This document shows, in pieces, positions 4,393 to 25,382 of a DNA stretch of 33,428 nt. Position numbers and translations under genes: made by a program. The stretch lies in the NCBI GenBank assembly GCA_964474475.1, contig CAYYTD010000001.1, forward strand, positions 1-33,428, given 5' to 3'. Source of the DNA: an uncultured Oscillospiraceae bacterium (GTDB lineage: Bacteria > Bacillota > Clostridia > Christensenellales > CAG-314). Below the pieces are notes generated by a model that saw nothing but the letters and a program-made list of their open reading frames with translations, was not told where the DNA came from and made no database searches. Each line of letters begins with the position of its first letter. The stretch's first letter is position 1.

Positions 4393-4405
4393 GGAGGAGC
4401 ACGAC

Positions 4406-9433: not shown

Positions 9434-12400
9434 ATGAAAAGGATTTTAACCTTGGTTTTGGTTCTTGCGGTAATGCTTGGCGTTGTTGCAGCCTGCACGC
9501 CCGATCCGGAACCGGATCCTCAACCTACTATGCTCACCGTCACAAGCGCGGCAGAGGTTAGTTTGGAACTAGGTCAAAGCTATATGCTTGCTTACGATAC
9601 GGACGGCACCGTACAAGTTAGCGTTAGCGGTGGTAGTTACGATGCAGAATCGCAAAAGTTTACTGCAACGGAAGCCGGGACCTACACGATCACTCTTACT
9701 GCAACCGCACAGGGCAAAAAGGAAACTGTTGCCACTGTAAAAGTTACATTCACGGTTGCAAGCGCCAACAAAACGGCGCTCGGCACAGCTATCGAAAGTG
9801 CCGGTGCTCTCGTTAAAACGGACTACACGAGTAGCTCGTGGAGCGCTCTTCAAACTGCACTCGACACGGCAAAAGCCGCACTCAATCAATCGGGCATTTC
9901 TCAAGCAGACGTTGACGCCGCAACCGCAGGCGTTACGAGTGCAATTTCCAACCTCGTGTCCAGCCTTGTCAAGGCCGAAATTGGCGCCGACAACAAGTCA
10001 TTCACCTGGATGGAAACTACCTATGCCGAAGCAGATTACGACAACTTTGCCGATATCGTGGCAGAAATTAGCGCGTTAAACGCCAATGCGGAAATGACTG
10101 TCAAGTCCAAGTACAACCCCGCAATCTCCGCCATTCTCGACAAACTCGTTGCAAAGCTTAAGCTTGCCATCAAGAGCGAACTCAAGAACAACGCAACGAT
10201 GATCGTTGAATCTCTCGTTGAATACACTCTCACAGCCGAATCGGAAGACGGCGCAACTTATTCTTGGAAGGTTGACGGCAAAGAAGTTGCAACTACCGCA
10301 ACGCTTGCGTTTACTCCTACGGAATTCAAACGCTACGAAATCGAATGCACGGCAACCAAGGGTAAGAGCTCCAACGTTAAAACACACACCGTTGCATTCG
10401 TAAAGGCCGATTACGTAGTTAACGGAAGATTTACGGACAGCATCTCCGTTGCAAACAACGTTATTAGCGTAACCGGAGACCTTGGCTGGGGCGACGAAGA
10501 AGGCAAAAAGGTTACTCTTCCCGATCTTAGACTTTCCGGTAACTTTACGGTTTACTTCGACGTAACCTTCACCAAGACGGCAGATCCTGCCGTTATGGCA
10601 CTCTTCCTCCTCAAGGACAACGGCGAACGCAACGATTTCTGGGTGGCAGTACTTCAACACAACAACAGACTTGAAGTTGCAACCAGAGGCGACAGCGACG
10701 ATTTCAAGCCTCGTTACGAAATGCCCGCCGGAACGGCAACTCTCGACAAGGTTATCCACGTAATGATGACTCGTACCATCAAGGACGGCAAAGCATATCT
10801 CTACGCTTACATACTTGACGACGATGGCAAAGTCATCATGACTCACGATGCAAACGGTCTTTACAAGGACGACGCTGATTCTCTCGGCACCGTACAACTC
10901 GGTATCCAAGCAGAACACGCTCACTTTACCGTTTCCAACCTTGCAGTTGGCATCAACGACAATCTCGTCAATCGCAAACCCGTCAACGAAAGTATTGCAA
11001 AACTTTCCGGCTACGTAGAATCCGACTACACGACGGAAAGCTGGGGCAAGATTACCGCAGCAAAGACACAAGCTGAATCTGCGGCAACTCAAGAACAAGT
11101 TAATGCTGCTGCAGCAGCCATCGACAAAGCCATTGCCGAACTCGTACCCGCAACGTTCGAAAAAGCCGAAGTATCCGCAACCGGAATTACTTACGCAGGC
11201 AGAACGTACGGAGCAGACGATTACACCAACTACGAAACGGTACTTGCACAAGTCAACGAACTTGCAAAACTCACCCTTCGTTCCAAGTATAATCCGGAAA
11301 TCGTCAAGGTTCTTGCAACTCTCCAACTCAAACTCAACTTCAGCGTAAGCGGTATTGCAGACGGTACCAACCTTATTGTTAAGGCTCTTACCGAGTACAC
11401 CCTTACTGCTTCCAGCGAAACGGAAGGCGTAACTTACGCTTGGTCGGTTAACGGCACAGCTAAGGGCACTGGCGAAGAATTTAAGTTCACTCCCGAATCA
11501 TTCGGCAAAGTGGAAATTACCTGCCAAGCCAGCACGGCTAGCGGAGCAGTGGCAAGCCGCGTTATTTCCGTTTCCTTCATCGAATCGGACGTTAAGACTC
11601 CTATCGGCGACAAAGTAACCATTGGCGACGACGGTTCCTTCACGACGCAAACCGGCATCGAATGGCCCTACTGGGAAGGCAGAAACGTTCTTTACGACGA
11701 TCTTATTTTCAACGGTTCCTTCTCCATCACGATGGACCTTACCTACAACGGAACGAGCGACGGAGCCACCGTTGCAACCATTCACCTTCTCAATGCAGAT
11801 ACGCTTAGCCCAAGCTGGGGCGGCGACTGGGCATACGTAGGATACGGCTGCATCTGCCTCCACGAAAATCCCGTCAGGTTAGAAACCTGCTGGTCAGGCA
11901 CCGGCAAAAAGCAATCTAGCGACGGCGGATTCGATTCCATCGCTACGGCAATGAGCGGAGTAGCAGACTTGCTTGAACAAGGCGACACCTTTACCGTAAA
12001 ACTTACTTGCTACCGCAACGCAGAAAAACAACTTCAACTCGTTTACTCACTTTTGAACACCAAGAATGGTGAATGGATTGAATTCAACCGCAACGAATGG
12101 GCCGGAGACATGGGCGGCGGCTTCATCGTAGGTATCAACGTTGAACATATCGGTCTTACAGCCAAAAACGTTCGTTACGAACTTCTTGACGCAACGGGCA
12201 GCTACTTGGCAGGTTCCGTCAAGTCCAGAGCAGTTCTTTCCGCAACACTCGTCAAGTATCAAGACGTAGTTGCTTCCGAATACGTAAACGGCGCAGCATT
12301 CACCGCAGCTTACAAAGCAGCATGGGCTCTTATGAGCAACAACAGCGCAATTGTCGACTACGATGCAGCAGCACAAGCTCTTGAAACGGCAGCAAAAGCT

Positions 12401-13204
12401 CTCGTTCCTAGAACCGTAGCCGTCTCCGCAGGAGCGCTTGACAAGGGATATGCAAACTACGTAGGCGTAACCGAGTTTGAAGCCAAGTTTGCCGAAGGCG
12501 TAACCGCAACGGACGTAAAATGGACCTACAAACTTAATGGCGAAGCAGGCGAAAAGGTCGGCGCAAAACTCGCTCTTGAAAACGGTGCTTACACCGAAGT
12601 TAAATTGTCCTTTACGGTTGGTGGCGAAACTTACACCTATCAATATCAAGACTTTAAGGTTTCGGCTCTCTCACTCAAGTCCTACACGGAAAAAGTTACC
12701 GTAACGGGCAGTACCGTTAGCGTTGACGACGGCGCAGGTTGGGGACAAAAGGATCAACTTGTAATCGAAAACGTACGCGCTCAAGAATTTGAACTCGTGT
12801 TCAACGCAGAGTACAAAGGAACGCCCGGCGGCGGATACCGCGTAATGTGCATCAACCTCTTTGGTGAAGCGATCAGACCGGTATTCGGTTATCAAAGAGA
12901 AGACCGTGCCGACAGAGCACAAATCGGTTTCGACAACAATGGTGAATGGACAGACATCAACAAGGCCGATGCGGAAGCAGATTACAACCACATCTTTGGA
13001 GAAGCAACCAAGTTCAGCCTCAAGCTTTCACAAGACGGCGAAGGCAAGTTCTGGATCACCTTCACGGTTTACCGTGCAGACGGCAGTGTTATTGCCCAAA
13101 AGACTTGCGACCACGCTGCATGGTACAGCTCCACTACGGAACTTCGTTTCACCTTCGAAAACATCGACCTCACTCTTGGCGGTTTTGAGGTTTACTACAA
13201 CTAA
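9434..13204 (+). CDS. Large surface lipoprotein (1256 aa): N-terminal Ig-like domain plus three tandem modules of FIVAR-like helical segment, Ig-like domain and jelly-roll/LamG-like beta-sandwich
   Basis: Lipobox GVVAAC-TPD. FIVAR-like segments include DYTSSSWSALQTALDTAKAALNQSGISQADVDAATAGVTSAISNLV and DYTTESWGKITAAKTQAESAATQEQVNAAAAAIDKAIAELV. Ig-like repeats: ATYSWKVDGKEVATTATLAFTPTEFKRYEIECTA vs VTYAWSVNGTAKGTGEEFKFTPESFGKVEITCQA vs VKWTYKLNGEAGEKVGAKLAL. Each is followed by a roughly 170-aa beta-rich block. Confidence 0.8.
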   Translation: MKRILTLVLVLAVMLGVVAACTPDPEPDPQPTMLTVTSAAEVSLELGQSYMLAYDTDGTVQVSVSGGSYDAESQKFTATEAGTYTITLTATAQGKKETVATVKVTFTVASANKTALGTAIESAGALVKTDYTSSSWSALQTALDTAKAALNQSGISQADVDAATAGVTSAISNLVSSLVKAEIGADNKSFTWMETTYAEADYDNFADIVAEISALNANAEMTVKSKYNPAISAILDKLVAKLKLAIKSELKNNATMIVESLVEYTLTAESEDGATYSWKVDGKEVATTATLAFTPTEFKRYEIECTATKGKSSNVKTHTVAFVKADYVVNGRFTDSISVANNVISVTGDLGWGDEEGKKVTLPDLRLSGNFTVYFDVTFTKTADPAVMALFLLKDNGERNDFWVAVLQHNNRLEVATRGDSDDFKPRYEMPAGTATLDKVIHVMMTRTIKDGKAYLYAYILDDDGKVIMTHDANGLYKDDADSLGTVQLGIQAEHAHFTVSNLAVGINDNLVNRKPVNESIAKLSGYVESDYTTESWGKITAAKTQAESAATQEQVNAAAAAIDKAIAELVPATFEKAEVSATGITYAGRTYGADDYTNYETVLAQVNELAKLTLRSKYNPEIVKVLATLQLKLNFSVSGIADGTNLIVKALTEYTLTASSETEGVTYAWSVNGTAKGTGEEFKFTPESFGKVEITCQASTASGAVASRVISVSFIESDVKTPIGDKVTIGDDGSFTTQTGIEWPYWEGRNVLYDDLIFNGSFSITMDLTYNGTSDGATVATIHLLNADTLSPSWGGDWAYVGYGCICLHENPVRLETCWSGTGKKQSSDGGFDSIATAMSGVADLLEQGDTFTVKLTCYRNAEKQLQLVYSLLNTKNGEWIEFNRNEWAGDMGGGFIVGINVEHIGLTAKNVRYELLDATGSYLAGSVKSRAVLSATLVKYQDVVASEYVNGAAFTAAYKAAWALMSNNSAIVDYDAAAQALETAAKALVPRTVAVSAGALDKGYANYVGVTEFEAKFAEGVTATDVKWTYKLNGEAGEKVGAKLALENGAYTEVKLSFTVGGETYTYQYQDFKVSALSLKSYTEKVTVTGSTVSVDDGAGWGQKDQLVIENVRAQEFELVFNAEYKGTPGGGYRVMCINLFGEAIRPVFGYQREDRADRAQIGFDNNGEWTDINKADAEADYNHIFGEATKFSLKLSQDGEGKFWITFTVYRADGSVIAQKTCDHAAWYSSTTELRFTFENIDLTLGGFEVYYN

Positions 13205-13242
13205 TTTTTGTAGTATCAAATAACGTTAGTTATTAAAATCAG

Positions 13243-13306
13243 GTTTTCCACTCACGAGGGGCGCCTTTTACAAGGCGTCCCCAAAGTGGAAACTAAATAG
13301 TTTTTT
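13243..13306 (+). terminator. Two-tier GC-rich hairpin followed by a T-run (terminator-like, possibly leaky)
   Basis: Outer stem GTTT(T)CCACT 13243-13252 pairs with AGTGGAAAC 13285-13293. Inner stem GGGGCGCC 13258-13265 pairs with GGCG(T)CCCC 13274-13282. TTTTTT at 13301-13306 is 8 nt from the stem, so this is not a textbook intrinsic terminator. Confidence 0.4.
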
Positions 13307-13320
13307 ACAAAGAGGTTGAC

Positions 13321-14238
13321 GTGAAATTCATGAAACCCCTCATGATTGCCTTTGCAATCATACTTTTGCCTTTGTTCGTGCTGTCCACCATGCAGCTGTT
13401 TGGCTGGACGTGGCCTACGGAATTTGCAGGCGCCAACGTAGTAATGACGGTGGTTTTGGCTGTTTTTACTGCGTTACTGGTAATTTCTGCTTTCGGGCAG
13501 AAGTTTAGAATACAAAAAATAGGCACTTATCTTCTCCACGCGGGATTCGTTTTGTTCCTTGCGGGGAGTTTGCTCTACGTAACTACGGGTACTTCTCTCA
13601 CAGTAGCCGTGCCTGTGGATAACACTAAGGCTTACAGCTATTTGGAAGATAGCAACGGCAACGTGGTAGAGCTTGGCTTTGCCTTTGGTCTTGACCAATT
13701 CAAGATTACTTATTACGACCCTGTTTACGACGTTTACCAAGTGGACGGGGAAAACACCAAGACGGTAATGACCGACGTGCAAGTGCAAAAGTCGGCAACC
13801 GGCGAATGGTACTATGATTTTGACAAATACGGCGCAATAACTCTCAACGAGTTACTTGACGGCGAAAGTATAGATACGATAAAACAAACGGTCACTTTAG
13901 GCGACGGAGTGGTTGCTTCCGTTAGGTTGTTAGTCAAGGAATACGTTGCCAACGTTACTTTTATTGACGAAAACGGCGGCGAAACGAGCCAAGAACTGTT
14001 GGTTAACCACACGTTGTACAAAAACGGATTCAAAATTTACCTCATGGGGTACGACGAAGTATCTTCGCGCGTTACCTTAATGTTCAAGAAGAATATCGGC
14101 GAACCTTTGTCTACGGCAGGGCTGATCGTCGTAATGGCAGGCACCCTCTTCCAATGCATCGTGTATCCTTTAATTGTTAACAGGAAAAGCAAAAATGCCT
14201 TGCCCGCATCCGAAAAGGACGAGGAGGGCAAGATATGA
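13321..14238 (+). CDS. ccsB: Compact ResB/CcsB (Ccs1)-like cytochrome c biogenesis protein (System II)
   Basis: 305 aa. N-terminal TM helices include a His-containing helix (IGTYLLHAGFVLFLAGSLL), then an extracytoplasmic domain, then VNHTLYKNGFKIYLMGYD (compare the ResB consensus VNHPL..G...YQ.sY) and a C-terminal TM. The stop overlaps the ccsA start (ATGA at 14235-14238). GTG start 5 nt after AGAGG. Confidence 0.65.
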   Translation: MKFMKPLMIAFAIILLPLFVLSTMQLFGWTWPTEFAGANVVMTVVLAVFTALLVISAFGQKFRIQKIGTYLLHAGFVLFLAGSLLYVTTGTSLTVAVPVDNTKAYSYLEDSNGNVVELGFAFGLDQFKITYYDPVYDVYQVDGENTKTVMTDVQVQKSATGEWYYDFDKYGAITLNELLDGESIDTIKQTVTLGDGVVASVRLLVKEYVANVTFIDENGGETSQELLVNHTLYKNGFKIYLMGYDEVSSRVTLMFKKNIGEPLSTAGLIVVMAGTLFQCIVYPLIVNRKSKNALPASEKDEEGKI

Positions 14239-14993
14239 GTTGGTTGAAAATAGTAATGGTTGCCTCGGCACTGTTCCTTTTTGCGGCAACTGCGTTGTTC
14301 GTTAAGAAACGCACCTACGCCAAGTACGTGGCGGCAATCGGCTTTGTTTTGAACGGAGTAGTCGTTGCGGTAAACTGGATTTCTAACGGCTATGTTCCCT
14401 TCATCAGCATGTATCAAGTGCTGGCGTTCGTGGGTGTTTGTTTCCCCCTTGCGTATTTGCTAATTCACTTCGTGCGCGAAACCAAAGTGAATTTTGCTTG
14501 GTTTACCCTTTGCGCAGGCGTGTGCATGGTCGGTTCGGCAGCGATGTTCAGCACCATGATTTGGCATCGGGCACCCGCCTTGCAGTCACCTTTCTTTATT
14601 CCTCACATACTTTGTTACATTTTGTCCTACTCTTTGTGCGCCGTCGCTTTCGTGCAGACGATAGTGATGATGTTCCAAAAGAAAGAGGAAGACAAGGCAG
14701 AAACGGAAAAATCCATCTACGCCATAGTGATAACGGCATTTCCATTTATGGTAATGGGTATGTTTCTCGGCGCCATTTGGGCAAACGAATGCTGGGGCAA
14801 TTACTGGTCGTGGGATCCCAAAGAAAACTGGGCGCTCATCACCACTTGCTTGTACGCATTCTATTTCCACGTAAGAAAACGCAAATTTTTCAAAAAATGG
14901 CTTGTTCCCGTTTTAATAATCGCTTTCGTAAGCCTAATTATTACATTTATCGGTGTCAATGCGGTAGAAGGCGCATTGCACTCCTATTCATGA
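14235..14993 (+). CDS. ccsA: Cytochrome c assembly protein CcsA/ResC (haem-handling, System II)
   Basis: Polytopic membrane protein with the tryptophan-rich WWD motif WANECWGNYWSWDPKENWALIT (nt 14778-14831). Flanking conserved-looking histidines occur in FFIPHILCY and FYFHVRK. Confidence 0.85.
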   Translation: MSWLKIVMVASALFLFAATALFVKKRTYAKYVAAIGFVLNGVVVAVNWISNGYVPFISMYQVLAFVGVCFPLAYLLIHFVRETKVNFAWFTLCAGVCMVGSAAMFSTMIWHRAPALQSPFFIPHILCYILSYSLCAVAFVQTIVMMFQKKEEDKAETEKSIYAIVITAFPFMVMGMFLGAIWANECWGNYWSWDPKENWALITTCLYAFYFHVRKRKFFKKWLVPVLIIAFVSLIITFIGVNAVEGALHSYS

Positions 14994-15012
14994 ATATTTA
15001 ATGGAGGTATTT

Positions 15013-17259
15013 ATGGAAAAGAAACTTATCAAAAAGCTCCTAATAGGCACCTGTTGCCTGCTGTTTGTTCTTGCTTGCGGTTTTGCACTAACCGCTTGCG
15101 ACAAAGAGGAGCTCAACTTTGAGTCGGTTAGTGTGTATCACACGGCCGAACAGTACGTTTCTCCGTCGGGCATTGCTCGCAAGGGAGAGTCGACTTTCGT
15201 TTCCGATGCTACGCTCAACAAGGTTTACAAGCTCAACGAAGAGGGCACCGTTCTTAGGTCCTATTCGTTTGACCAAACGGTCAACTCCGTTTACGTAAAC
15301 GGCGACAACGTTTACGCGCTTGTAGGCGAACTTGCAGGGGAAATTTACCGCTTCGACGGATCCCTTAATCTCCTGTCTAAGGCAGAAGTAGAGCACACCC
15401 CAACGGATGCACTCGTCCTTGACGGCAAGATTTACGTGGTGAACAGATTTTCGGCGTCGATATCTATTCTTTCCGAAGACTTGACAACTAACGTAGAAAA
15501 GATTGACCTATCCGACGGCAGAGAGCCCATGGCAATTGCAACGGCACAAAACAAAATATTCGTTGCTTGTCATCTTCCTAGCGGCAAAGCTACCGACGCA
15601 ACCGTATCTGCCGATTTGTTCGTGATCAATCCCGAAACGGCAAAGGTTACCAAGAAAATAGAGTTGCTCAACGGAACGGGCGGACTCAAAGACATGGCAG
15701 TATCGTCCGACGGCAAATACGTTTACACAACCAATTTGTTCGCAAGATACGCCTACCCCACGTCGCAACTCGATCGCGGATGGATTAACACCAACGGCAT
15801 TACCGTGGTGGATGCCACAGCCGAAGAGGTGTACGCAGGAGTGTTGCTCGACAGCGTTGAACGCGGAGCATCCAACCCGTGGGGAATTGACGTAATAGGC
15901 GAAGGCAAAAATGCCAAAGTCGTTTGCGCCATCAGCGGTCTTGGCGAAATCTCCGTCATCGACGAATCGGCAATGTTTGCCAAGCTGCAACGCGTAGAAA
16001 AGGGCGAGTTTGACTACGGCTTGGATGCAGTAGTGGATCGCGTTGAATTTTCTTCGGATATCAGCCAGCGCATTTCCGTTGGCGGCAACGGACTTAGAGA
16101 AGTTTTGCTTGCCGACGAATACGGAACGGAATATGCCTACCTTACCCAGTATTTTGACGGAACTATTACCAAAATCGCTCTCGAAACGGACGAAGTAGGT
16201 GAGCGCGAAAAGGCCGTTTACATGATCGGTTCGCAAGGAACCCCCACTAAGGAAAGAATAGGCGAAATTCTTTGGTACGACGGCAATTACTGTTATCAAG
16301 CGTGGGAGTCCTGTGCAAGCTGCCACCCCGATGCAAGAGCCGACGGATTAAACTGGGATAACCTCAACGACGGTCTTGGCAACCCCAAGCAGGCAAAGTC
16401 GATGATGTATTCACATCGTACCCCTCCCGAAATGGTCACCGGCGCGCGTGAAACTGCCGAGCTTGCCGTGCGCAAGGGAATGCAGTTCATTCAGTTCAAC
16501 ACCATGGAAGAAGAGCTTCTTGAGTGCATCGACGATTATCTCAAGTCGCTTGCGCCCACGCAAAGTCCTTACCTCAACAGAGATGGCACGCTTACTGCCT
16601 CGGCAGAGCGCGGCAAGGAATTGTTCAGTCAGTTCAATTGCGCATCTTGCCACACCGGTCCATATTACACCGACCTTCAAATGCATCAATCCTCCTCTCT
16701 CGACCTTGACGACACGTGGGAAGACAGAGCTTTCGACACACCCACTCTCGTTGAAATTTGGAGAACGGCACCATACGTATTCAACGGAAGTTGTGCAACG
16801 ATGGAAGATGCTGTAAGGTATTTCGTAGAAAAATCCGGCAAAACCATTACCGACGAACAAGTAACGGACCTTGCTAACTACATACTTTCCATCGGCGACG
16901 AAGGGGAATATTACGGCGTTCAACAGGTATTTTTCGATAGAAACGACGACTCCGGCGAACTTGCCGTTCAATTGCTCGTTCCGGGAAGAACCATGAACAA
17001 GGTGACGATACGCAAGCAGCATGATACCGACAAGAATGCGTACGTTTGCATCAAGCTTTACGATGCAAGCGGCAAGCAAATCGGTGAAAGCGTCAACGCC
17101 GTTCTCACGGGAATGGTAAAGGGCGATTACGCCATGTTTGAGTGCGATCTCGATGTGCCTGCGGATCTTGCCAAAGGAAGTTATTACGAAATTACAATCG
17201 TAAATGCAGACGACACGGGTGAAGCGTTAGCAACGCCGCTCCGCGTGTATTATAATTAA
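15013..17259 (+). CDS. Lipoprotein: N-terminal YVTN/lactonase-type beta-propeller fused to a di-haem cytochrome c peroxidase/MauG-family domain
   Basis: Lipobox GFALTAC-DK. Propeller-like repeats include KIYVVNRFSASISIL, KIFVACHLPS and DGKYVYTTNLF. Two CXXCH motifs: WESCASCHPDARADG (nt 16312-16326) and FNCASCHTGPYYTD (nt 16639-16653). CCP signature: AFDTPTLVEIWRTAPYVFNGSCATMEDAV. ATG 15013 is 5 nt after GGAGG; the ORF track gives 15001. Confidence 0.8.
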   Translation: MEKKLIKKLLIGTCCLLFVLACGFALTACDKEELNFESVSVYHTAEQYVSPSGIARKGESTFVSDATLNKVYKLNEEGTVLRSYSFDQTVNSVYVNGDNVYALVGELAGEIYRFDGSLNLLSKAEVEHTPTDALVLDGKIYVVNRFSASISILSEDLTTNVEKIDLSDGREPMAIATAQNKIFVACHLPSGKATDATVSADLFVINPETAKVTKKIELLNGTGGLKDMAVSSDGKYVYTTNLFARYAYPTSQLDRGWINTNGITVVDATAEEVYAGVLLDSVERGASNPWGIDVIGEGKNAKVVCAISGLGEISVIDESAMFAKLQRVEKGEFDYGLDAVVDRVEFSSDISQRISVGGNGLREVLLADEYGTEYAYLTQYFDGTITKIALETDEVGEREKAVYMIGSQGTPTKERIGEILWYDGNYCYQAWESCASCHPDARADGLNWDNLNDGLGNPKQAKSMMYSHRTPPEMVTGARETAELAVRKGMQFIQFNTMEEELLECIDDYLKSLAPTQSPYLNRDGTLTASAERGKELFSQFNCASCHTGPYYTDLQMHQSSSLDLDDTWEDRAFDTPTLVEIWRTAPYVFNGSCATMEDAVRYFVEKSGKTITDEQVTDLANYILSIGDEGEYYGVQQVFFDRNDDSGELAVQLLVPGRTMNKVTIRKQHDTDKNAYVCIKLYDASGKQIGESVNAVLTGMVKGDYAMFECDLDVPADLAKGSYYEITIVNADDTGEALATPLRVYYN

Positions 17260-17271
17260 GGAGGGCAAAAT

Positions 17272-20200
17272 ATGAAGGATATGAAAAAACGTACCGTAGC
17301 GGTTATCGCTTTTGCAACTTTATTGATTATTTGCCTTACGTTTGTGGGTTGCAACGACAACGGCCCCGTTAAGGGATACGAACCGTCTACGTTAACCAAC
17401 AACACGACGACCATCAAGACTACCTCTGCCGAGCAAACGCAGTACTATGGTTCTCTTGAAAACGTAATCGAAGGATATGCCTCCGAGTACGTAATTACGC
17501 GTCACAAACCAATGGCAGGTACCTTTTACGCCTACACCGAAGGCATCACCGACGACCTTGCCGGACTTCACGGCGGCGAAGGCAACGAAGCCGTCTTTTG
17601 GCCGGGCTCTCAACTGCTCAAGTTGAAGCTGTCTTATGACCTTGACGGAAATCTTCAAAAGGAAGAAGAACTGCTGGTAGATTCTCCCAACGGAGTAGTG
17701 CGCGATCCGGACGTTTCCGCCGATGGCAAAAGAGTGGTGTTCAGCTGGAAACAAAACAAACAAGACGACTACCACCTTTACATTTACTTTTTAGAAACGG
17801 GCCTTGTTGAGCAAATCACCTTTGGTCAAGGCATCAGTGATACCGAACCCAAGTGGTTGCCCAACGGTCAAATAGTCTTTTCCTCGTCCAGAACGGTACA
17901 AATAGTAGACTGCTGGAAAACCCCCGTATCCAACCTGTATATTTGCAATGCAGACGGTTCGGAAATGATCCGCGTAGGATACGACCAAGTTCACACAACC
18001 TACCCCACCGTTACGGAAGATGGCAGAGTGCTTTACACTCGTTGGGACTACAACGACAGAACGCAAATGTTCGTTCAAGCGCTTTTCTCAATGAATGCCG
18101 ACGGCACCGGACAAACGGCAGTATTCGGAAACAACAGTAACAACCCTACTACGGTAATGCACACCGTTGCCGTTCCCGGTTCGTCCAGTAAGTACCTTAC
18201 CATCGTTTCCGGTCACCACGTAACACAAGGCGGCAAACTTGCCGTTATCGATACCGCAATCGATCGTGACGGACAATCTCCCCTCGATTACGTATTCGAA
18301 GCTGCCGAATCGGGCGAAAGTATCGACACTCTCGGTCAAGCAGGCAGAATTTACAAGTACCCCATTGCAATTAACGAAAATGAAATGATTTTCGCCAGAG
18401 CGGAGTCTTGGGCAAGTGCCAAGCAAGAAACCAAGTTCAGCTTGTATTATTACAATTCCGAAACGGGCGAAATGATTTGCATTGCCGATTGTAACGGTGG
18501 CAAAATTTCCTGTTCGCAAATTGCACCCATTCGCACCAAACGCACATTCGTTCGCCCCAGCATGGTCGATTACTCCAAGGATACCGGCACCTATTACGTT
18601 GCAAACGTTTACGAAGGCGACACCATGAAGGAAGTTGAATTCGGTGCAGTCAAGTATCTCCGCGTAGTTGCGTTGGATTACAGACCTTACGCCGTTGGTG
18701 CGGTTTCGGCAGGAAACAGCTCGGCTTATCCCGACGGTTTTGGTACTTCCGACCCGTCAACACCCGTAGGAACGGCAAACTCCACGTGGGACGTAAAGAA
18801 GGTTATCGGCATCGTGCCTGTCGAAGAAGACGGCTCCGTAATGTTCAGTTGCCCGTCGGACGTTCCCGTGTACTTCCAGCTCCTAGATGAAAACGGATTG
18901 ATGATTCAGTCCATGAGAAGTTGGTCCACCCTCATGCCGGGCGAAACTTTCTCCTGCGTGGGATGTCACGAAAGCAAAAACAACGTTCCCGTTAGCGGCA
19001 GCATGGTTACGATGGCAATGAAGAAGGGCGTCCAAAAGCTTCAAAAAGACATTTGGATGACCACTGAAGAGTACGAAAATTACGATCCTTACACCGATTA
19101 CAAAGGATTTAGCTACGCCGACGAAATTCAGCCCATTCTTGACAGAAGTTGTGTGTCGTGTCATACTAACGTAGAATTGGCAAATAAGCGTCTTGGCAGC
19201 CAAGGCATTTCGGTAGATATAGGCAAAACGGTTACTTCTTCCACGTGGAAGTATCTTGTAACTACAAAGAGTAACGACGTTTCTTGGACGAGTTCCGCCT
19301 TCAATCCCGATTGGTCAACGGCAACGCAACCCTTTGGTAGCGATTCAGGCAGTTCCATCACGTGGGGTGCAAGTTCCGATGCTTGCTTCTACATGACGCA
19401 ACAATTTACCCTCACGGCTGACCAGCTCAAAGGCAAGTTCTTTATCAAGTGGCAGTACGACGAAGATCCTCAACTCTATCTCAACGGTACGAGAATCGAT
19501 TCCGTTCCTGTCAACGGCACCTACATTACAGGCACAACCTATTTTGAACTTTCCGCATCGCAAAAAGCACTTCTCAACGAAGGTACCAACACGATTACCG
19601 CGCGTGCTTACAACGCTATGGGCGGTTCGTATATGTACGTAGAGTTAACCTGCAACACTGAGGTTGCTTCCACAACCACAAGCCCTGTTGCACTTACGGA
19701 CGAAATTAGGGTAGCAAGCCGCGACAAGGTAGATTACTATCTGTCCTACCTCGTGCTTACAGGTTCTTTCCTCAAGGGTAACTTCTATTGCGGGACTCCC
19801 ACTAACGACATCACCGATTGGATCGGCGGCATGAGCGATCCTACGACCATTCCTGCGTATACTCATGGTTCAACCCAAAGCGGAATCATCGAAATGCTCA
19901 TGAACGACCATCAAGGACTTCTTTCTTCGGGCAAGATCAGCAAGGAAGACATCTACCGCATTGCAGCATGGATCGATCTCGGCGTTCCTTACAGAGGAAG
20001 CTACAACGAAGCTTCGGAAAACTGGGGTTCGTTGGAAATGGGTGAAGCCGAAAGACGCCAAAACATGCGCGACTATTACAACAAGATCGACGAGTTGAAC
20101 AAGGCAAAAAAAGCAGGCCAACTCAGCAGAAAAAAGGTGCTCATCGAGTACTTTGATGCAAGTGGCAACTATATCGGCGCAGTAGAAGATAGACACCTTT

Positions 20201-20949
20201 CCATTCTCTATCTCGATCAAAAAATTCAAGCGGGCGACACCGTCGTCGTAACCCTTCCCAGTGGCTACGAATACGTGTGGTTTAGCCTCAGTCCCAAAAT
20301 GAAGCTGGCACTCATGTACTGTCCGGACGGCGTGTTCACTTACACGGTTCCCCAGTATGCCGAAAATATCTTCCCCAACCTTACCGTAGGAAAGGATCAA
20401 TACGTTTACACCCATCCCACGATTACCGCCTTCCTTCCTAGCGAAGAAGACTTGAATGCAATTTACAACGTAGCACTCAATCCGTACGACGCAGGCTACA
20501 AAAACGAAGGAGCCAAGATAACCACAGGCAGCGCTTGGGAAAACGACGGTTACGGCAACTTCTTCCCTGCAAACGCATTTGACGGATTCACCTGCAACCG
20601 CGGCCACGGTGTATTCCCCAACCAAAGCTGGGGACCGGACAAGAACGTAGGCAATGAAGATAGATGGCTGCAAATCGACTTCGGTAGAGAAGTAGAGCTT
20701 TACTCCTTTGAAATGTTCATTCGTGCAGACTTCCCGCACGATGCTTACATCACCAAGCTGGAACTTGAATTTTCCGACGGGACGATAATAGAGTGGACTG
20801 ACCTCAAGCAAACGAATCAAGGTCAAATCCTCGTCCTCGAAGAAGCCATCAAAACTACTTTCGTAAAGATTAAAAATATCGAAACTTCCAAGGACGATTG
20901 GTTCGGAATTTCCGAGTTTATGGCTTACGGCAAAAACGTTATCAAGTAA
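17272..20949 (+). CDS. Lipoprotein (1225 aa): PD40/TolB-like beta-propeller, HzsA-like di-haem c module, galactose-binding-like beta-sandwich and C-terminal F5/8 type C (discoidin)-like domain
   Basis: Lipobox LTFVGC-NDN. PD40-like repeats: DVSADGKRVVFSW, PKWLPNGQIVFSSSR, PTVTEDGRVLYTRWDY. CXXCH motifs: PGETFSCVGCHESKN (nt 18955-18969) and DRSCVSCHTN (nt 19150-19164). Beta-sandwich pattern: FFIKWQYDEDPQLYLNGTRI. Discoidin-like: NEDRWLQIDFGREVELYSFEMFIRADF. RBS AAGGAGGG. Confidence 0.75.
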   Translation: MKDMKKRTVAVIAFATLLIICLTFVGCNDNGPVKGYEPSTLTNNTTTIKTTSAEQTQYYGSLENVIEGYASEYVITRHKPMAGTFYAYTEGITDDLAGLHGGEGNEAVFWPGSQLLKLKLSYDLDGNLQKEEELLVDSPNGVVRDPDVSADGKRVVFSWKQNKQDDYHLYIYFLETGLVEQITFGQGISDTEPKWLPNGQIVFSSSRTVQIVDCWKTPVSNLYICNADGSEMIRVGYDQVHTTYPTVTEDGRVLYTRWDYNDRTQMFVQALFSMNADGTGQTAVFGNNSNNPTTVMHTVAVPGSSSKYLTIVSGHHVTQGGKLAVIDTAIDRDGQSPLDYVFEAAESGESIDTLGQAGRIYKYPIAINENEMIFARAESWASAKQETKFSLYYYNSETGEMICIADCNGGKISCSQIAPIRTKRTFVRPSMVDYSKDTGTYYVANVYEGDTMKEVEFGAVKYLRVVALDYRPYAVGAVSAGNSSAYPDGFGTSDPSTPVGTANSTWDVKKVIGIVPVEEDGSVMFSCPSDVPVYFQLLDENGLMIQSMRSWSTLMPGETFSCVGCHESKNNVPVSGSMVTMAMKKGVQKLQKDIWMTTEEYENYDPYTDYKGFSYADEIQPILDRSCVSCHTNVELANKRLGSQGISVDIGKTVTSSTWKYLVTTKSNDVSWTSSAFNPDWSTATQPFGSDSGSSITWGASSDACFYMTQQFTLTADQLKGKFFIKWQYDEDPQLYLNGTRIDSVPVNGTYITGTTYFELSASQKALLNEGTNTITARAYNAMGGSYMYVELTCNTEVASTTTSPVALTDEIRVASRDKVDYYLSYLVLTGSFLKGNFYCGTPTNDITDWIGGMSDPTTIPAYTHGSTQSGIIEMLMNDHQGLLSSGKISKEDIYRIAAWIDLGVPYRGSYNEASENWGSLEMGEAERRQNMRDYYNKIDELNKAKKAGQLSRKKVLIEYFDASGNYIGAVEDRHLSILYLDQKIQAGDTVVVTLPSGYEYVWFSLSPKMKLALMYCPDGVFTYTVPQYAENIFPNLTVGKDQYVYTHPTITAFLPSEEDLNAIYNVALNPYDAGYKNEGAKITTGSAWENDGYGNFFPANAFDGFTCNRGHGVFPNQSWGPDKNVGNEDRWLQIDFGREVELYSFEMFIRADFPHDAYITKLELEFSDGTIIEWTDLKQTNQGQILVLEEAIKTTFVKIKNIETSKDDWFGISEFMAYGKNVIK

Positions 20950-20970
20950 TATTAGGGAGGAAACAAAAAC

Positions 20971-22659
20971 ATGAAGAAAACACTCGCTTTAATTCTTTTG
21001 TCGGTGTTGGCGTTAACGTTGGTTGCTTTTGCAGCTTGTGAAAAGGAACCGCCCGCACCCGTAAAGCCCACCGTGGGCACAGTAAGTGGCGTTGTAACCG
21101 ATTCTGCCGGCGATCCGCTTGAAGAAGCAGAAGTTTACTATTCCGAAGATTCTTCCGTTGAAACAAACGAGAACGGCAAATTCAGCATCAAAAACGTAAC
21201 CGTTGGCGATCTTACTTTGAAGGTAACACTCAAAGGCTACGCCACGAAAACGGTCAACGTAAACTACGACAGTTTCGACGACGAAGGCAACTGCAACTTG
21301 ACCATCGCCCTGGAAGATGGCGTAGGCACCATTAAGGGTACCGTCAGCGTAGACGGACTTACTTCCAAAAAGCTCCAAGGCGTTACCGTCTCTCTCGGTA
21401 GTTCGCAAGTGACGACGGACAAGGACGGCAAGTACGAAATTACCAACGTTTCCATGCACGGAACCAAAACCCTTACGGCAGTCGTCGACGGCTACGGTCA
21501 GTCGCGCAAAACCGTAACCGTTCGTTCCTTCGACGTAAACGGCGTTGCAACGGTCAACTTCCAACTCGTTCAAAACGACCTTGCCGAGTTGCCGGGCATC
21601 AAACCCAGCCAGCTTGAAGCGCTCGAAATTATTCCCGCAAGCAAAACGCAACTCAGCCTTTCCGACCTGAAAAATCTCAATCGCAGCCCGGACGGACTTG
21701 CAGGCACTTCCAAGGTTGAAGATCACGGCGAAGGTCTTTGCGTTAATGCCGATACCAAGAGTGACAATTCCAATATGGTTGCCTTCATTTACGGCAAAAT
21801 TAAAATTGACGACAACCACAAGTTCCTTACCTCTTACGTAAGAATTTTCTTCGGACAAAACGGCGGCAAGGATCACGATGCAGAAGCCGCAGGCGACTTT
21901 TCAACTGCAAAGCTTGCCGAGCTTGGCGTGTACATCATCAACGAACAAGGTGAAGTCGTCACAGACGTTGCTACCTTCCAAAAGGTAACCACCGAAGGTT
22001 TCATGCCCGTAACGTTCGATCTTTCCGCTTTTAGCGGACAAACGGTAACCTTCATTCTCGGCACCAAGACGGGATATCACTGCTGCTTTGACAGAGTAGA
22101 ATTTGCTGCCGCAGCTCCCAGATATCTTACCGTTAGCGGAGTGGACGGACTTACCAGCATTATGCTTCACAGCAAAGTGACGGATACTTCCTTCGATGCT
22201 GCAGCGCTCAAAGAAAAATGGGCTATCAGCGGTGGCGTAGGCATGGTGAGTGAAGGCATACAACTTAACGGCGCCGATCCTTGGAAGGCTGAAGATTTCG
22301 ATGCAGCCAATCCTCAGCCTGTAAACTCCTATATGTACTTAACTACGGATATTACCGCACAAAACAGTCAAATGTCAATTGCGGCAACCATCGTTAACCT
22401 TAAAGAGTGCACAGACCCCGCTTCTGCCGATCCCAACCATCACTTCTTCCCGTGGGTTTCCGTAATAGTGCTTGACAGTAACGGCAATGTTCTCAAGCAA
22501 ACGGACTGGACCAAGGTTGAAGTTGCCGAAAACAACGCCGAGTTCAATTTGGATTGCGATCTTTCCTCTTGCGTAGGGCAAGACGTCACCGTCGTTATTG
22601 CCTGCAATGTAGGTTATCGTGCAACCATCACGGGCGTAACTTTTGACGCAGCACAGTAA
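20971..22659 (+). CDS. Lipoprotein with two carboxypeptidase-regulatory-like (CarboxypepD_reg) domains and two related C-terminal beta-sandwich modules
   Basis: Lipobox LVAFAAC-EKE. CarboxypepD_reg-like segments: GTVSGVVTDSAGDPLEEAEVYYSEDSSVETNENGKFSIKNVTVGDLTLKVTLKGY and GTIKGTVSVDG...VTTDKDGKYEITNVSMHGTKTLTAVVDGY. C-terminal duplication: VTFDLSAFSGQTVTFILGTKTGYHCCFDRVEF vs FNLDCDLSSCVGQDVTVVIACNVGYRATITGVTF. Confidence 0.7.
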   Translation: MKKTLALILLSVLALTLVAFAACEKEPPAPVKPTVGTVSGVVTDSAGDPLEEAEVYYSEDSSVETNENGKFSIKNVTVGDLTLKVTLKGYATKTVNVNYDSFDDEGNCNLTIALEDGVGTIKGTVSVDGLTSKKLQGVTVSLGSSQVTTDKDGKYEITNVSMHGTKTLTAVVDGYGQSRKTVTVRSFDVNGVATVNFQLVQNDLAELPGIKPSQLEALEIIPASKTQLSLSDLKNLNRSPDGLAGTSKVEDHGEGLCVNADTKSDNSNMVAFIYGKIKIDDNHKFLTSYVRIFFGQNGGKDHDAEAAGDFSTAKLAELGVYIINEQGEVVTDVATFQKVTTEGFMPVTFDLSAFSGQTVTFILGTKTGYHCCFDRVEFAAAAPRYLTVSGVDGLTSIMLHSKVTDTSFDAAALKEKWAISGGVGMVSEGIQLNGADPWKAEDFDAANPQPVNSYMYLTTDITAQNSQMSIAATIVNLKECTDPASADPNHHFFPWVSVIVLDSNGNVLKQTDWTKVEVAENNAEFNLDCDLSSCVGQDVTVVIACNVGYRATITGVTFDAAQ

Positions 22660-22676
22660 ACTTTATAACACAAACG

Positions 22677-22712
22677 GGTAAATGCGGCGCAATTGCCGCA
22701 TTTACCTTTAAA
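22677..22712 (+). terminator. Hairpin terminator candidate after the lipoprotein operon
   Basis: 12-bp perfect stem GGTAAATGCGGC (22677-22688) pairing with GCCGCATTTACC (22695-22706), 6-nt loop, followed by TTTAAACTTT (a weak T tract). Confidence 0.5.
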
Positions 22713-22726
22713 CTTTCAAGGAACAC

Positions 22727-23617
22727 ATGAAACCATCACAAAAAAGCAAACCGTTTGATAGAAAAGACGTATTTTTCCGCACGTTTAAGGAGCATTACGG
22801 CGTTTTGCTCGGCGTAAGCTTGGCAATGTTTGTATTTGCTCTGCCCGTAGTTGCGGTTTATTTCGGCGCGTATATCGAGTTGTCTCTTTTGGGAGAAATC
22901 ACGTTGGAAAACGCAGTGGAAATGTATTCCATACAAACGCAAATGTATATTTGGCTCATTCCTGCCTTTGCCATTTTTTCGGTGGGCGCAGCGGGTGCGT
23001 TTTACGTCATTCGCCGGCTGGTTTGGGATCAGCCAGTTTTGTTCTTTAGGGATTTCTTCCGCGGAATAAAGGCAAATTGGTTACAAAGCTTAATTAGCGG
23101 AGTAATTTTCATTCTTTTTATGGGAGCGCTCAATTACGCAATGAACATGCTCGTCCTCAACGTAGAGTTGGGCTCCGCCTATTGGACGTTGTACGTGGTG
23201 CAAATATTCTTGGCGGTAGTTGCGGCAATGCTGTTGCTGTTTCAGTATGCCGCCATCGCCGTTTACAACGACAACGTATTCAAAATTATCAAGAACAGCT
23301 TTGCTTTCCTTTGGGCGACCTTCCCCCGAAGCATCGGCATCGTACTGTTGGCATTTGCGCCCGTATTTGTTTTGCTTGCTTTTGCTAGTGTGTACATCAT
23401 CTACATCATCGTGTTGATATTCCTTGCGCTGGTGGGCTTTGCTTACGGCATACTCGTCTTCACCCTTCACGCGCATTACGTGTTCGACAAGTACGTCAAC
23501 AAGCAGTCTTTCCCCGACGTGTACAAAAAGGGGCTTTACCACGAAGGAACGACGGTCGGTAGCGAAACGGAATCTTCCGTCCCCGCCACCGAGGGCTACA
23601 ACATCGACGTTGAATAG
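22727..23617 (+). CDS. YesL/DUF624-family integral membrane protein
   Basis: About 6 TM segments. The N-terminal FFRTFKEHYGVLLGVSL and FFRDFFRGIKANW motifs are typical of DUF624 proteins, which accompany Gram-positive sugar ABC loci. The RBS is weak. Confidence 0.7.
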   Translation: MKPSQKSKPFDRKDVFFRTFKEHYGVLLGVSLAMFVFALPVVAVYFGAYIELSLLGEITLENAVEMYSIQTQMYIWLIPAFAIFSVGAAGAFYVIRRLVWDQPVLFFRDFFRGIKANWLQSLISGVIFILFMGALNYAMNMLVLNVELGSAYWTLYVVQIFLAVVAAMLLLFQYAAIAVYNDNVFKIIKNSFAFLWATFPRSIGIVLLAFAPVFVLLAFASVYIIYIIVLIFLALVGFAYGILVFTLHAHYVFDKYVNKQSFPDVYKKGLYHEGTTVGSETESSVPATEGYNIDVE

Positions 23618-23659
23618 GTTTGCAATTTCAAGTCGAGTAGTTTTACAATTTCAATAACA

Positions 23660-23732
23660 AAAAAAGGCGCTCGGCGAAGTTTTTCGTCGGGCGTCTTTTT
23701 CGTGATTTGTTAATTATTATTGCAATTCGTTG
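23660..23732. repeat. 73-bp direct repeat, copy 1 (contains a terminator)
   Basis: Matches 25151-25223 at a constant offset of 1491 bp, with one mismatch seen (23709 G vs 25200 A). Looser similarity extends a few nt upstream (CAATAA...). Confidence 0.85.
23666..23700 (+). terminator. Rho-independent terminator (A-tract upstream and T-tract downstream, so possibly bidirectional)
   Basis: 13-bp stem GGCGCTCGGCGAA / TTCGTCGGGCGTC (three G-U pairs), loop GTTT, then TTTTT (23696-23700). Preceded by A7 (23659-23665). Confidence 0.7.
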
Positions 23733-23926
23733 ATATTTTTTGTATTTTATTCGTTGAGTTTTTTTGCAAATAAATACGCTGATTTTTTTGCAAATGCATT
23801 TTTCGTTGTGTCTTTAGGAATGCGGTCAAAGTGGGTGGATGAATGCGCAAATACAGTTGCAAAAAGGTAAAGCACAAATTTATTCGTCTCGATTTTCTTT
23901 ACCGATGATATTATTTTCGGCATACA

Positions 23927-23935
23927 TGGTATAAT
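23927..23935 (+). promoter_or_regulatory. Extended -10 promoter element candidate for the arsR-nitroreductase cassette
   Basis: TGgTATAAT at 23927-23935, about 40 nt upstream of the ArsR start. The -35 (GATATT, 23907-23912) is weak. Confidence 0.35.
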
Positions 23936-23976
23936 AGCATTGGTTTAAACGTTTAGACGAAAGGAGGTGCATTGTT

Positions 23977-24330
23977 GTGGACAATCACGAAAGGGTACGC
24001 GAGCTTACGGATAGGTTTTCCGCTTGTTCCAAAGTGCTTATTGCCATAGGGGACGAAACGAGACAGCGACTGATACTGGAAATGATGAAAATTGGCAAGT
24101 GCAACGGCGTTCGCGTGGGCGAAATAACACAAAAGACGAATTTGTCGCGCCCTGCAGTGTCCCATCATTTGCAAATAATGAAGGATGCCGGCATCGTCAA
24201 AGTGCGCAAGGAAGGCACCAAGAATTACTATTATTTCGATTCGGAAATGGAGTGCTTCGAGCAGTTAATTTCCACATTGCGTTTTGCCATGGAAATATCT
24301 GCCGATTTGCCCGATAGGCGCGGAGAATAA
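23977..24330 (+). CDS. ArsR/SmtB-family winged-helix transcriptional regulator
   Basis: 117 aa. Sequence LIAIGDETRQRLILEMMK...VGEITQKTNLSRPAVSHHLQIMKDAGIVKVRKEGTKNYYYF. GTG start 9 nt after AAGGAGG. Confidence 0.85.
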   Translation: MDNHERVRELTDRFSACSKVLIAIGDETRQRLILEMMKIGKCNGVRVGEITQKTNLSRPAVSHHLQIMKDAGIVKVRKEGTKNYYYFDSEMECFEQLISTLRFAMEISADLPDRRGE

Positions 24331-24437
24331 CGGGCATTTGCGCAAGACAACTCAAGTGGGCAAAGTGCCTATTTTGATGGCAAATAAAGATAATTAACCG
24401 TTAAGCGGTGCAATTTTACTAAAACGGAGGTAAAAAA

Positions 24438-25094: not shown

Positions 25095-25150
25095 TACGCT
25101 TGCACAGCAAATTTTAGTGAAAATAGTCAGTAGAAAGCGAACAATAAAAT

Positions 25151-25223: not shown

Positions 25224-25382
25224 TTATGTTGTATCGTAATAAGTTGGTTTTAATTGCAATTTATCGGTTATTCTTTTGTAATTTGTCCGTTGAGTTTATT
25301 GATTGTGTTTGTTGTAATCTGTCGGTCGCATTCCTCGCAACTCGTCAATTTGCTTTTTGTTCGTCACAAGCAACTGCGCAGG

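Follow-up and report, generated by a model that had tools for sequence, protein, structure and literature searches.

Why should a fermentative gut bacterium keep a system that attaches haem to proteins at its surface, and why should the genes for it lie among genes for the breakdown of alpha-mannan? The question is raised by a stretch of 33,428 nucleotides (nt), hereafter the window, from an uncultured Oscillospiraceae bacterium of the Clostridia (positions 1 to 33,428 of contig CAYYTD010000001.1, assembly GCA_964474475.1). Small-genome, fermentative gut Clostridia that are auxotrophic for haem would not be expected to have c-type cytochromes. A first reading of the sequence (the original prediction) had recognised a private cytochrome c maturation system and two haem c lipoproteins inside a locus with glycoside hydrolases (GH) of families GH76 and GH125, and had proposed a haem-dependent oxidative step tied to mannan or fungal cell-wall processing. 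We report here that the two lipoproteins, named BG and A, are very probably homologues of hydrazine synthase (HZS), that they form with the maturation genes a four-gene unit spread among uncultured gut Clostridia, and that the link with mannan is confined to one clade, with a single further GH76 neighbour outside it.

Two surface lipoproteins related to hydrazine synthase

Each lipoprotein carries two CXXCH motifs, exactly where they had been placed by the first reading: CASCH at 16312-16326 and 16639-16653 (residues 438 and 547) in BG, and CVGCH at 18955-18969 and CVSCH at 19150-19164 (residues 562 and 627) in A. The chance expectation, calculated from the cysteine and histidine content of the locus itself, is about 0.001-0.002 per protein. 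Both motif pairs are invariant among the aligned homologues (68 for BG, 37 for A), and their retention across carrier genera is about 94-100%, depending on the position. Such conservation is consistent with the original view of the pair as haem c proteins, the first of which has a di-haem domain of the type found in cytochrome c peroxidase (CCP) and MauG.

The best sequence matches of BG among solved structures are HZS gamma (5c2v_C, 3.6e-13, both CXXCH aligned) and HZS beta (5c2v_B, 2.4e-9). Classical di-haem peroxidases score below these in the same PDB search (3o5c_A, 9.7e-7), and the match to PF03150 (CCP_MauG) is borderline, with 27.4 bits for a cut-off of 25.6, accompanied by MbnH/MauG NCBIfam matches. 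Similarly, A finds HZS alpha first (5c2v_A, 3.3e-10, again with both CXXCH aligned), and its residues 458-567 form an HZS_alpha middle domain according to Pfam (6.5e-33). The C-terminal 571 residues of A gave no significant PDB sequence match, and residues 650-1090 no usable look-alike in the ESM Atlas. AlphaFold models (pLDDT 86.6 for BG and 81.4 for A) lead to the same relatives: the top fold match of BG is HZS beta 5c2v_B (Foldseek E 1.5e-18, TMt 0.83; by VIA, Z 39.5 and root-mean-square deviation 2.7 over 331 residues, 8 Z units over the next propeller), and that of A is HZS alpha (Foldseek E 1.6e-22 over 706 columns), followed by TolB at 4e-10.

A complex was also predicted between BG (residues 40-650) and A (residues 425-665), along with three controls. 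The interface score ipSAE was 0.67 for the pair versus 0.00 for the best of the three controls, a mark that 58 of 80 solved complexes and 2 of 110 mismatched pairs attained, and the runs showed at least 91% contact agreement with a partner pLDDT of at least 71. In the predicted interface, the invariant BG loop 247-264 and the segment 429-462 around the first haem motif of BG would pack against residues flanking A C562. HZS is described in PMC12607021 as a tetrahaem enzyme in which a tunnel connects the two active-site haems, gamma I and alpha I. The parts list of anammox HZS is like that of BG and A, and its alpha haem I likewise faces the loop of beta and the haem I region of gamma. The prediction speaks for likeness to HZS and is no proof of binding.

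Because sequence, fold and predicted complex agree, we hold with high confidence that BG is a fused HZS beta-gamma homologue and A an HZS alpha homologue to which domains of the carbohydrate-binding type are added. The original prediction had taken di-haem peroxidase relatives such as RoxA as its precedent, which fits the CCP/MauG domain of BG and misses the principal identity of both proteins. In a relative whose A is 84% identical (L005, 7517-9980, GCA_964413365.1), beta-gamma is called as two slightly overlapping genes of 434 and 395 amino acids (aa), reflecting either a Kuenenia-like beta/gamma split or a frameshift.

Comparison with known enzymes

BG and A together present the alpha, beta and gamma domain architecture with its four haem c sites. 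As in Kuenenia stuttgartiensis HZS (PDB 5C2V), alpha comprises a propeller, a middle haem domain and a second haem c domain, beta is a seven-bladed propeller, gamma is a CCP-like di-haem domain, the CXXCH motifs number four in total and beta-gamma precedes alpha. On the other hand, identity is 15-18%, beta and gamma are fused here, and BG and A are Gram-positive surface lipoproteins, whereas HZS resides in the anammoxosome. A is also longer by about 570 residues bearing carbohydrate-binding-type domains, an additional beta-sandwich forms the C-terminus of BG, and the host is a fermentative gut bacterium in which no partner of the hydrazine dehydrogenase (HDH) or hydroxylamine oxidoreductase (HAO) type was found.

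Homology to all three subunits, a gene order shared with anammox bacteria and an HZS-like predicted interface could point to a genuine hydrazine synthase or another N-N bond-forming enzyme, a reading whose probability we put close to nil. The NCBIfam equivalog scores lie far below their cut-offs, with 62.2 bits versus 800 for hydrazine_alpha, 66.8 versus 1250 for hydrazine_BC, 57.5 versus 625 for gamma and 41.9 versus 560 for beta. Two residues are peculiar to HZS: Cys165 of gamma, which forms a third covalent haem link, and a Tyr four residues past the CXXCH His of alpha, described as the proximal ligand of haem I (PMC12607021, PMC12758564). The former (residue 126 of chain 5c2v_C) aligns with Val in BG in one pairwise phmmer alignment; in A, C562-H566 is followed by E-S-K-N, with an invariant Asn570 at His+4 and no Tyr. 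The source genome (1.35 Mb, 47% GC) is 84% complete, which limits this and all further negative results drawn from it; it contains no open reading frame (ORF) found to have more than two CXXCH, hence no octahaem partner of the HDH/HAO type was seen. Because Cys165, the alpha I Tyr, equivalog-level scores and the HDH/HAO partner are all lacking, BG and A were ruled out as a true hydrazine synthase, and the same conclusion was reached for other non-anammox HZS homologues (Hagglund et al., 2025, PMC12758564).

The family of non-anammox HZS homologues is thus already known, although only recently recognised. Its published pairs, in clades I-IV, come from Planctomycetota, Desulfobacterota, Acidobacteriota and similar groups (Hagglund et al., 2025, PMC12758564). 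They resemble BG and A in having co-localised alpha-like and fused beta-gamma-like genes and canonical haem pockets, in having lost the HZS-specific residues and in being without assigned function. The main text of that work mentions beta-gamma matches in Bacteroidota and 'Bacillus' in passing, and contains no Clostridia clade, adjacent CcsBA, fusion to lipoprotein, dockerin or carbohydrate-binding module (CBM), or glycan locus; its clades I-III have FG-GAP/CRTAC1 neighbours and additional c554 domains, neither of which was observed here. Judging by the literature searched, the Gram-positive host, the lipoprotein format and a private CcsBA for an HZS-like pair are unreported, and so are the CBM-like and dockerin fusions, the gut habitat and the integration into a mannan operon in one clade.

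With the di-haem peroxidase superfamily (CCP, MauG, MbnH, RoxA), the C-terminal half of BG shares the CCP_MauG-type two-haem arrangement. It differs by its fusion to an HZS-beta-type propeller, its pairing with a di-haem alpha partner and the position of the CCP electron-transfer-haem Met, which aligns with Phe in BG. The sixth ligand of the second haem is Met in CCP and Tyr in MauG. The Met of 3o5c_A aligns with Phe608 of BG, next to Tyr607, and neither residue is conserved in the 68-sequence alignment.

A dedicated maturation system and its haem supply

The genes at 13321-14993 are predicted to encode a minimal System II (ResB/CcsA) cytochrome c synthetase, as was first proposed, and both the gene limits and the ATGA overlap (14235-14238) stand as read. 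CcsA matches PF01578 with 116.6 bits (cut-off 29.9) and TIGR03144 with 144.6 bits, under the cut-off of 187.6. ResB matches PF05140 with 59.9 bits (cut-off 24.6), over profile positions 142-278 of 486 only, and belongs to a short form (305 aa here, 226-301 aa in annotated relatives). W182, W187, W191 and D194 of CcsA are found in all 56 homologues and W199 in 55 of them; H124, H212 and H249 are invariant in the same set, as is H73 in 34 of 34 ResB homologues. These histidines make up the four-histidine System II pattern, with putative transmembrane or external sites. Known System II synthetases (CcsBA/ResBC) have in common with this pair the ResB-like and CcsA families, the WWD domain, the four conserved His and translationally coupled genes. 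The short ResB, the lack of any CcdA/ResA found and the restriction to two dedicated clients in an organism without other cytochromes set it apart.

Profile searches of the whole genome found one Cytochrom_C_asm gene and one HZS_alpha gene, and a genome-wide CXXCH census found no plausible secreted CXXCH protein besides BG and A. Since these are the only Ccs genes in the genome and BG and A their only plausible clients, the word private is a fair one for the system. Possession of maturation genes for just two proteins implies strong selection for the role of these proteins. Two other ORFs with two CXXCH, on contigs C8 and C154, were rejected as cytochromes, being a Cys-rich repeat lipoprotein and a double zinc ribbon. 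The former (47-3946, L096; 1300 aa) has CX10CXXC repeats in which a His falls by chance in two of six, and a large lipoprotein on contig C2 (from about 23311; 1027 aa) has a single CXXCH.

Searches for 5-aminolaevulinate dehydratase (ALAD), porphobilinogen deaminase and ferrochelatase found none of them in this genome, and ALAD was not found in five other carrier genomes either. Cytochrome bd, a UbiA/MenA prenyltransferase and a Peripla_BP_2-type haem/siderophore binding protein were likewise not found in the source genome. The host is apparently a haem auxotroph without a respiratory chain, and its haem would need to come from scavenging, since the searches turned up no gene for haem synthesis. 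The gut haem auxotroph Bacteroides thetaiotaomicron would offer a precedent for cytochromes c made from scavenged haem. The same species gave the sole HZS_alpha (PF18582) match among 14 control genomes, together with a Cytochrom_C_asm match, and thereby provides a genetically tractable gut model with a member of the superfamily.

Spread of the four-gene unit

A species-level scan with one genome per species returned 80 loci, all from metagenome-assembled genomes of uncultured Clostridia living in ruminant, chicken, rabbit, human and other guts. In 74 of these loci BG immediately precedes A, and contig ends interrupt the others; CcsA was found in 58, and ResB in 49 by tblastn and in 10 more by Pfam. 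ResB-CcsA-BG-A is an order-conserved four-gene unit of uncultured gut Clostridia. Full-length A has hundreds of relatives (39-99% identity), many with F5/8 type C, Big_2, FIVAR, RicinB or GH2-type sugar-binding modules; a dockerin is present in at least 14 of the best 120, and cohesin genes occur among the neighbours of the unit.

Across prokaryotes, HZS_alpha is found in 2109 of 36145 genera (about 6%), concentrated in Planctomycetota, Verrucomicrobiota, Acidobacteriota, Bacteroidia and other glycan-degrading groups, with about 30 genera of Clostridia. The beta-gamma profile retrieved 1150 cluster representatives at E values up to 1e-30 and 10,400 at up to 1e-10. CcsA is a neighbour of HZS_alpha in 9 of 300 carriers (3/138, <3/84 and 3/75 in bands of likeness) versus fewer than 3 at random places. 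Such a neighbour being rare overall, the dedicated CcsBA seems to belong to the Clostridia form, as would be expected of hosts without other cytochrome c machinery. The non-anammox members of the superfamily have no assigned function in spite of this wide distribution, and the Clostridia units make both the HZS ancestry and the role of HZS relatives testable.

The neighbours of the unit are varied. Nearest-neighbour Pfam censuses cover the 25 commonest families, so that rare GH families are hidden and no total fraction of carbohydrate-active enzymes (CAZymes) can be drawn from them; an AraC-type regulator carrying a cupin sensor domain recurs most often (24 of 215 nearest neighbours). Of 13 fully annotated contexts, 9 contain GH genes at a distance of up to 10 kb. 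These 13 contexts comprise two mannan loci, a GH76/GH141/GH95 locus, a sulfatase with an EndoS-like GH18, GH43/GH130, a dockerin-bearing GH28, a GH3 directly downstream, a GFO_IDH_MocA/xylose-isomerase-like cluster with GH38, a beta-helix protein with GHL10, a distant GH32 and three housekeeping neighbourhoods. Several HZS-like units stand directly downstream of clusters of a GFO_IDH_MocA oxidoreductase and a xylose-isomerase-like TIM-barrel (AP_endonuc_2); in one of them (L101, 2244-7380), which has such a cluster upstream, the unit is without adjacent ccs genes.

The link with mannan

Profile searches agree with the first description of the surroundings, that is a LacI repressor, GH125, a sugar ABC importer, two GH76 genes and a giant lipoprotein upstream, and a YesL-type membrane protein downstream. 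A 23-kb contig of an unrelated study spans 8940-23732 unbroken, so that the adjacency of ccs and mannan genes is not an assembly artefact. Within the genus (47 species), CcsA is restricted to two species, that of the window (G000) and G058, and GH76 to the same two. The order of genes is identical in G058 from LacI, whose orthologue there is 69% identical and heads the same locus, through BG, where the contig ends; A was not found in the 40 other relatives searched. Given this joint occurrence, the shared order and the failure to find A in those relatives, the whole locus is an accessory island travelling as one piece. The unit itself has a GC content of 0.47-0.49 versus 0.471 for the genome, hence no compositional sign of recent transfer.

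The same gene order recurs in L005 and L013 as it does in G058, with proteins mostly 65-89% identical (about 50% for the giant lipoprotein). Among more distant relatives, L012/G063 (A 69% identical) has GH125 about 21 kb upstream on the same strand. In the metagenomic locus L009 (A 44% identical), the unit lies amid a rearranged GH125/GH76/ABC/LacI locus, in the order unassigned protein, ResB, CcsA, BG, A, substrate-binding protein (SBP), two permeases, unassigned protein, GH125, GH76 and LacI. A tree of 90 A sequences joins the mannan loci of the window lineage and of L009 in one clade with support 1.0. An unrelated locus, L021, has GH76 immediately upstream and GH141 and GH95 downstream.

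These observations bear directly on the explanation first offered, that of a dedicated oxidative step in alpha-mannan or fungal cell-wall breakdown, here extended to a mannan-active auxiliary enzyme across the family. The unit is tightly set between genes of the mannan locus on the same strand, the whole locus is co-inherited in the genus, the association survives rearrangement in L009, the GH76 neighbour of L021 is independent, and mannose- or N-glycan-related genes (GH38, GH130, EndoS-like GH18) lie near three other units. However, GH76 was found by tblastn near 2 of the 80 species-level loci and within 10 kb in none of 300 carrier genera (0/141, 0/135 and 0/21 in the bands of likeness, with fewer than five tried in the top band), and other units stand beside GH3, GH28, GH43, GH32, sulfatase or housekeeping genes. 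The mannan link is confined to one clade, that of the window lineage and L009, with L021 added for GH76. As they form a single clade, the mannan-linked units represent about one evolutionary event plus L021. We consider a family-wide mannan enzyme quite unlikely; a haem step tied to mannan keeps its ground in the window lineage and L009 and loses it as a general statement. Homologous units of ccsBA and haem proteins are regularly found without mannan genes, which is one half of what the original prediction had named as a sign of adjacency only, the other half being independent transcription.

Together with Gram-positive sugar ABC loci, the closest known counterparts of the locus are the yeast-mannan polysaccharide utilisation loci (PULs) of Bacteroides (Cuskin et al., 2015, PMC4978465), in which a regulator and an importer likewise accompany GH76 and GH125. 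The present locus differs from them by its Gram-positive ABC/lipoprotein format, by the haem unit and by its glycosidases, which are GH76 and GH125 only, without the debranching enzymes GH92, GH38 or GH99 in the window. The literature searched contained no mannan locus with a haem unit, and no link to glycans of the HZS_alpha family or of a dockerin- or PUL-associated cytochrome c.

Possible role of the unit

The explanation that we favour, and regard as reasonably probable, is that of a self-contained four-haem surface oxidoreductase built on the HZS scaffold and recruited here into a mannan operon. ResB and CcsA would attach scavenged haem to the CXXCH motifs of BG and A, which would then form an HZS-like heterocomplex at the outer face of the membrane, with the BG loop 247-264 and the first-haem region packed on the first haem motif of A. 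The complex would most probably be an oxidoreductase with two sites: a small oxidant, by default guess peroxide, would be activated at the CCP/MauG-like haem of BG, and oxidising equivalents or a small intermediate would pass from BG to the first haem of A, which would act on a substrate held by the propeller and the carbohydrate-binding-type C-terminal domains of A. In the window clade, the unit would have been recruited into an alpha-1,6-mannan (GH76/GH125) operon, between the surface lipoprotein and the YesL-like gene, and its substrate is probably a feature of yeast or fungal mannan or mannoprotein beyond the reach of the few glycosidases of the locus. In other lineages, the unit would serve other contexts, often under an AraC-type regulator.

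The CBM32-like and dockerin accessories, along with the mannan operon of one clade, suggest where a substrate may be sought. A redox role directed at glycans or glycoproteins is tentative and less likely than not. If true, it would represent a new enzyme class in anaerobic glycan breakdown and would link haem availability in the gut to the use of fibre and yeast mannan. A more specific version, to which we give a low probability, is a two-subunit four-haem auxiliary-activity enzyme of strict anaerobes, the first such enzyme to depend on haem c, borne by lipoproteins or cellulosomes and equipped with its own minimal CcsBA and with scavenged host or dietary haem. It would use a small oxidant at one haem and modify a glycan or glycoprotein, here yeast or fungal mannan or mannoprotein, at the other, and the very large family of non-anammox HZS-like proteins would thereby gain its first biochemical function.

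Several points weigh against the surface oxidoreductase and its glycan connection, beginning with the scarcity of GH76 near related units reported above. The oxidant, substrate and reaction of BG and A are guesses. Because an HZS structure has been solved, the complex score may partly reflect memory of it. Surface proteins other than CAZymes can likewise bear F5/8 type C domains and dockerins. The frequency of GH neighbours, from 13 contexts without a random-place control, is suggestive only and may be the background for gut Clostridia; three units (L007, L103, L105) have purely housekeeping neighbours, and most are heterogeneous. A stable hairpin between the mannan genes and the haem unit could uncouple the two. 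Neither an electron donor or acceptor nor a haem importer was found in the genome, and no DsbD_TM match was obtained for DsbD/CcdA, the thiol-reducing partner. In Bacillus subtilis, CcdA and ResA are dispensable once no thiol oxidant is present, so that their lack need not block maturation.

The peroxidase-like half of BG invites another explanation, in which this CCP-like di-haem domain would remove peroxide (or NO, or hydroxylamine) at the surface of an oxygen-sensitive gut anaerobe, the CBM-like domains would serve only as anchors to the cell wall or to mucus, and the glycan context would be a matter of hitch-hiking. The matches to 3o5c_A, PF03150 and the MbnH/MauG profiles are in line with such a detoxification, as are the gut anaerobes that carry the unit, the many units standing alone beside AraC or ArsR regulators and the binding of NO by HZS gamma haem I, described in PMC12607021. 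Nevertheless, a simple peroxidase has no need of dockerins or of a 1225-aa alpha partner that has two invariant haems itself; no electron-donating chain (quinone prenyltransferase, cytochrome bd or small cytochrome c) was found in the genome, and the nearby cassette of an ArsR regulator and a nitroreductase is a strain-variable insert outside the unit. Detoxification is therefore unlikely in our opinion.

The four haems might instead carry metabolic electrons to an outside acceptor, as a terminal of extracellular electron transfer and an extra sink during growth on glycans. Surface haem c lipoproteins with a dedicated maturation system in a Gram-positive would suit this role, and in HZS the haems alpha II and gamma II transfer electrons at low potential according to PMC12607021. 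We judge it very unlikely, since each protein has just two haems within large enzyme-like propellers, the unit has no conserved membrane partner linked to quinol or NADH and no UbiA/MenA was found in the genome, and versions borne by dockerins would be far from the membrane.

Layout of the locus and neighbouring elements

The features of the window are collected in Table 1. Of the families singled out for searching by the original prediction, ResB, Cytochrom_C_asm, HZS_alpha, F5_F8_type_C, CarboxypepD_reg and, at the borderline, CCP_MauG were matched; its proposed genome census gave no other plausible CXXCH client or Ccs gene, and neither ccdA nor haem biosynthesis was found in the 84% of the genome available.

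Table 1. Coordinates of genes, protein domains and hairpins in the window, with the evidence for each.
Feature	Position	Strand	Evidence
LacI-type sugar repressor, C-terminal part	17-643	+	Peripla_BP_3 7e-18; cut by window start
GH125 exo-alpha-1,6-mannosidase family, without signal peptide	812-2080	+	PF06824 1.1e-145
Sugar ABC importer: SBP lipoprotein (2102-3463), permeases (3487-4392, 4406-5326)	2102-5326	+	SBP_bac_8/1, BPD_transp_1
Secreted 486-aa protein	5330-6790	+	No Pfam/NCBIfam match above threshold
Two GH76 endo-alpha-1,6-mannanase family genes	6817-9376	+	PF03663 1e-23 and 7e-29
1256-aa surface lipoprotein, FIVAR and PKD-like domains	9434-13204	+	Profile search
Gap with stable GC hairpin	13205-13320	+	RNA folding
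Short ResB/CcsB, 305 aa	13321-14238	+	PF05140 2.6e-16, hydrophobic segments
CcsA, 252 aa, WWD domain	14235-14993	+	PF01578 1.6e-33
Lipoprotein BG, 752 aa	15001-17259	+	HZS beta/gamma matches, model
BG domain 1: seven-bladed beta-propeller, HZS-beta-like	residues ~47-400		
BG domain 2: di-haem, CCP/MauG/HZS-gamma-like	residues ~415-635		
BG domain 3: C-terminal beta-sandwich	residues ~638-750		
Lipoprotein A, 1225 aa	17272-20949	+	PF18582 6.5e-33, PF00754 9.3e-11
A layout: TolB-like propeller, HZS_alpha middle domain, second haem c domain, jelly-roll-like, helical, C-terminal F5/8 type C (CBM32-like)			
Lipoprotein C, 562 aa, two CarboxypepD_reg-like domains	20971-22659	+	PF13620 1.5e-21
Palindromic hairpin, 12-bp stem, interval between gene C and YesL-like gene	22677-22706	.	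Hairpin scan
YesL/MusI-like multi-pass membrane protein, typical of sugar ABC loci	22727-23617	+	MusI_fam 5.7e-7, 7 hydrophobic segments
Terminator-like hairpin, 18-bp stem, after YesL-like gene	23661-23700		Hairpin scan

The close spacing on one strand that had been noted was measured as gaps of 7, 12 and 21 nt downstream of CcsA (to BG, A and C), followed by 67 nt to the YesL/MusI-like gene; from GH125 through the giant lipoprotein, the intergenic gaps are of 3-57 nt, also on one strand. Spacing from the mannan genes through the haem unit looks operon-like. All three proteins downstream of CcsA have lipoboxes. Lipoprotein C gave no significant match in a PDB sequence search and occurs in 5 of the 80 loci, in the window's own lineage only, whereas the position of the 1256-aa lipoprotein is conserved in G058, L005, L013 and L012. 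As judged from the N-termini, the first GH76 (6817-8118) is a lipoprotein, and the second (8168-9376), like GH125, is without signal peptide, which suggests endo-cleavage at the surface, then import and intracellular trimming. The 5330-6790 protein has longer relatives in L009 (3405-5828 and 17366-19918; 808 and 851 aa, 26-28% identical) and may be a new component of Gram-positive mannan loci.

The 116-nt gap between the giant lipoprotein and ResB folds into a hairpin with a minimum free energy of -35.6 kcal/mol (z -5.3), whose stem has been preserved through compensatory substitutions in G058, L005 and L013 and which has no U-tract directly after the stem. Scans for promoter and terminator consensus stayed at shuffle level, and none was called in 13205-13320. 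The hairpin is possibly a processing, stabilising or attenuating element.

Downstream of the YesL-like gene, two direct repeats of 80 nt (23660-23739 and 25151-25230, 96% identical), each starting with a terminator-like hairpin with an 18-bp stem, enclose an ArsR-type regulator (23977-24330) and a TM1586-type nitroreductase (24438-25094). Contigs from two other studies join 23732 to 25228 and are without this 1495-nt cassette, which is a strain-variable indel at the repeats and not part of the unit.

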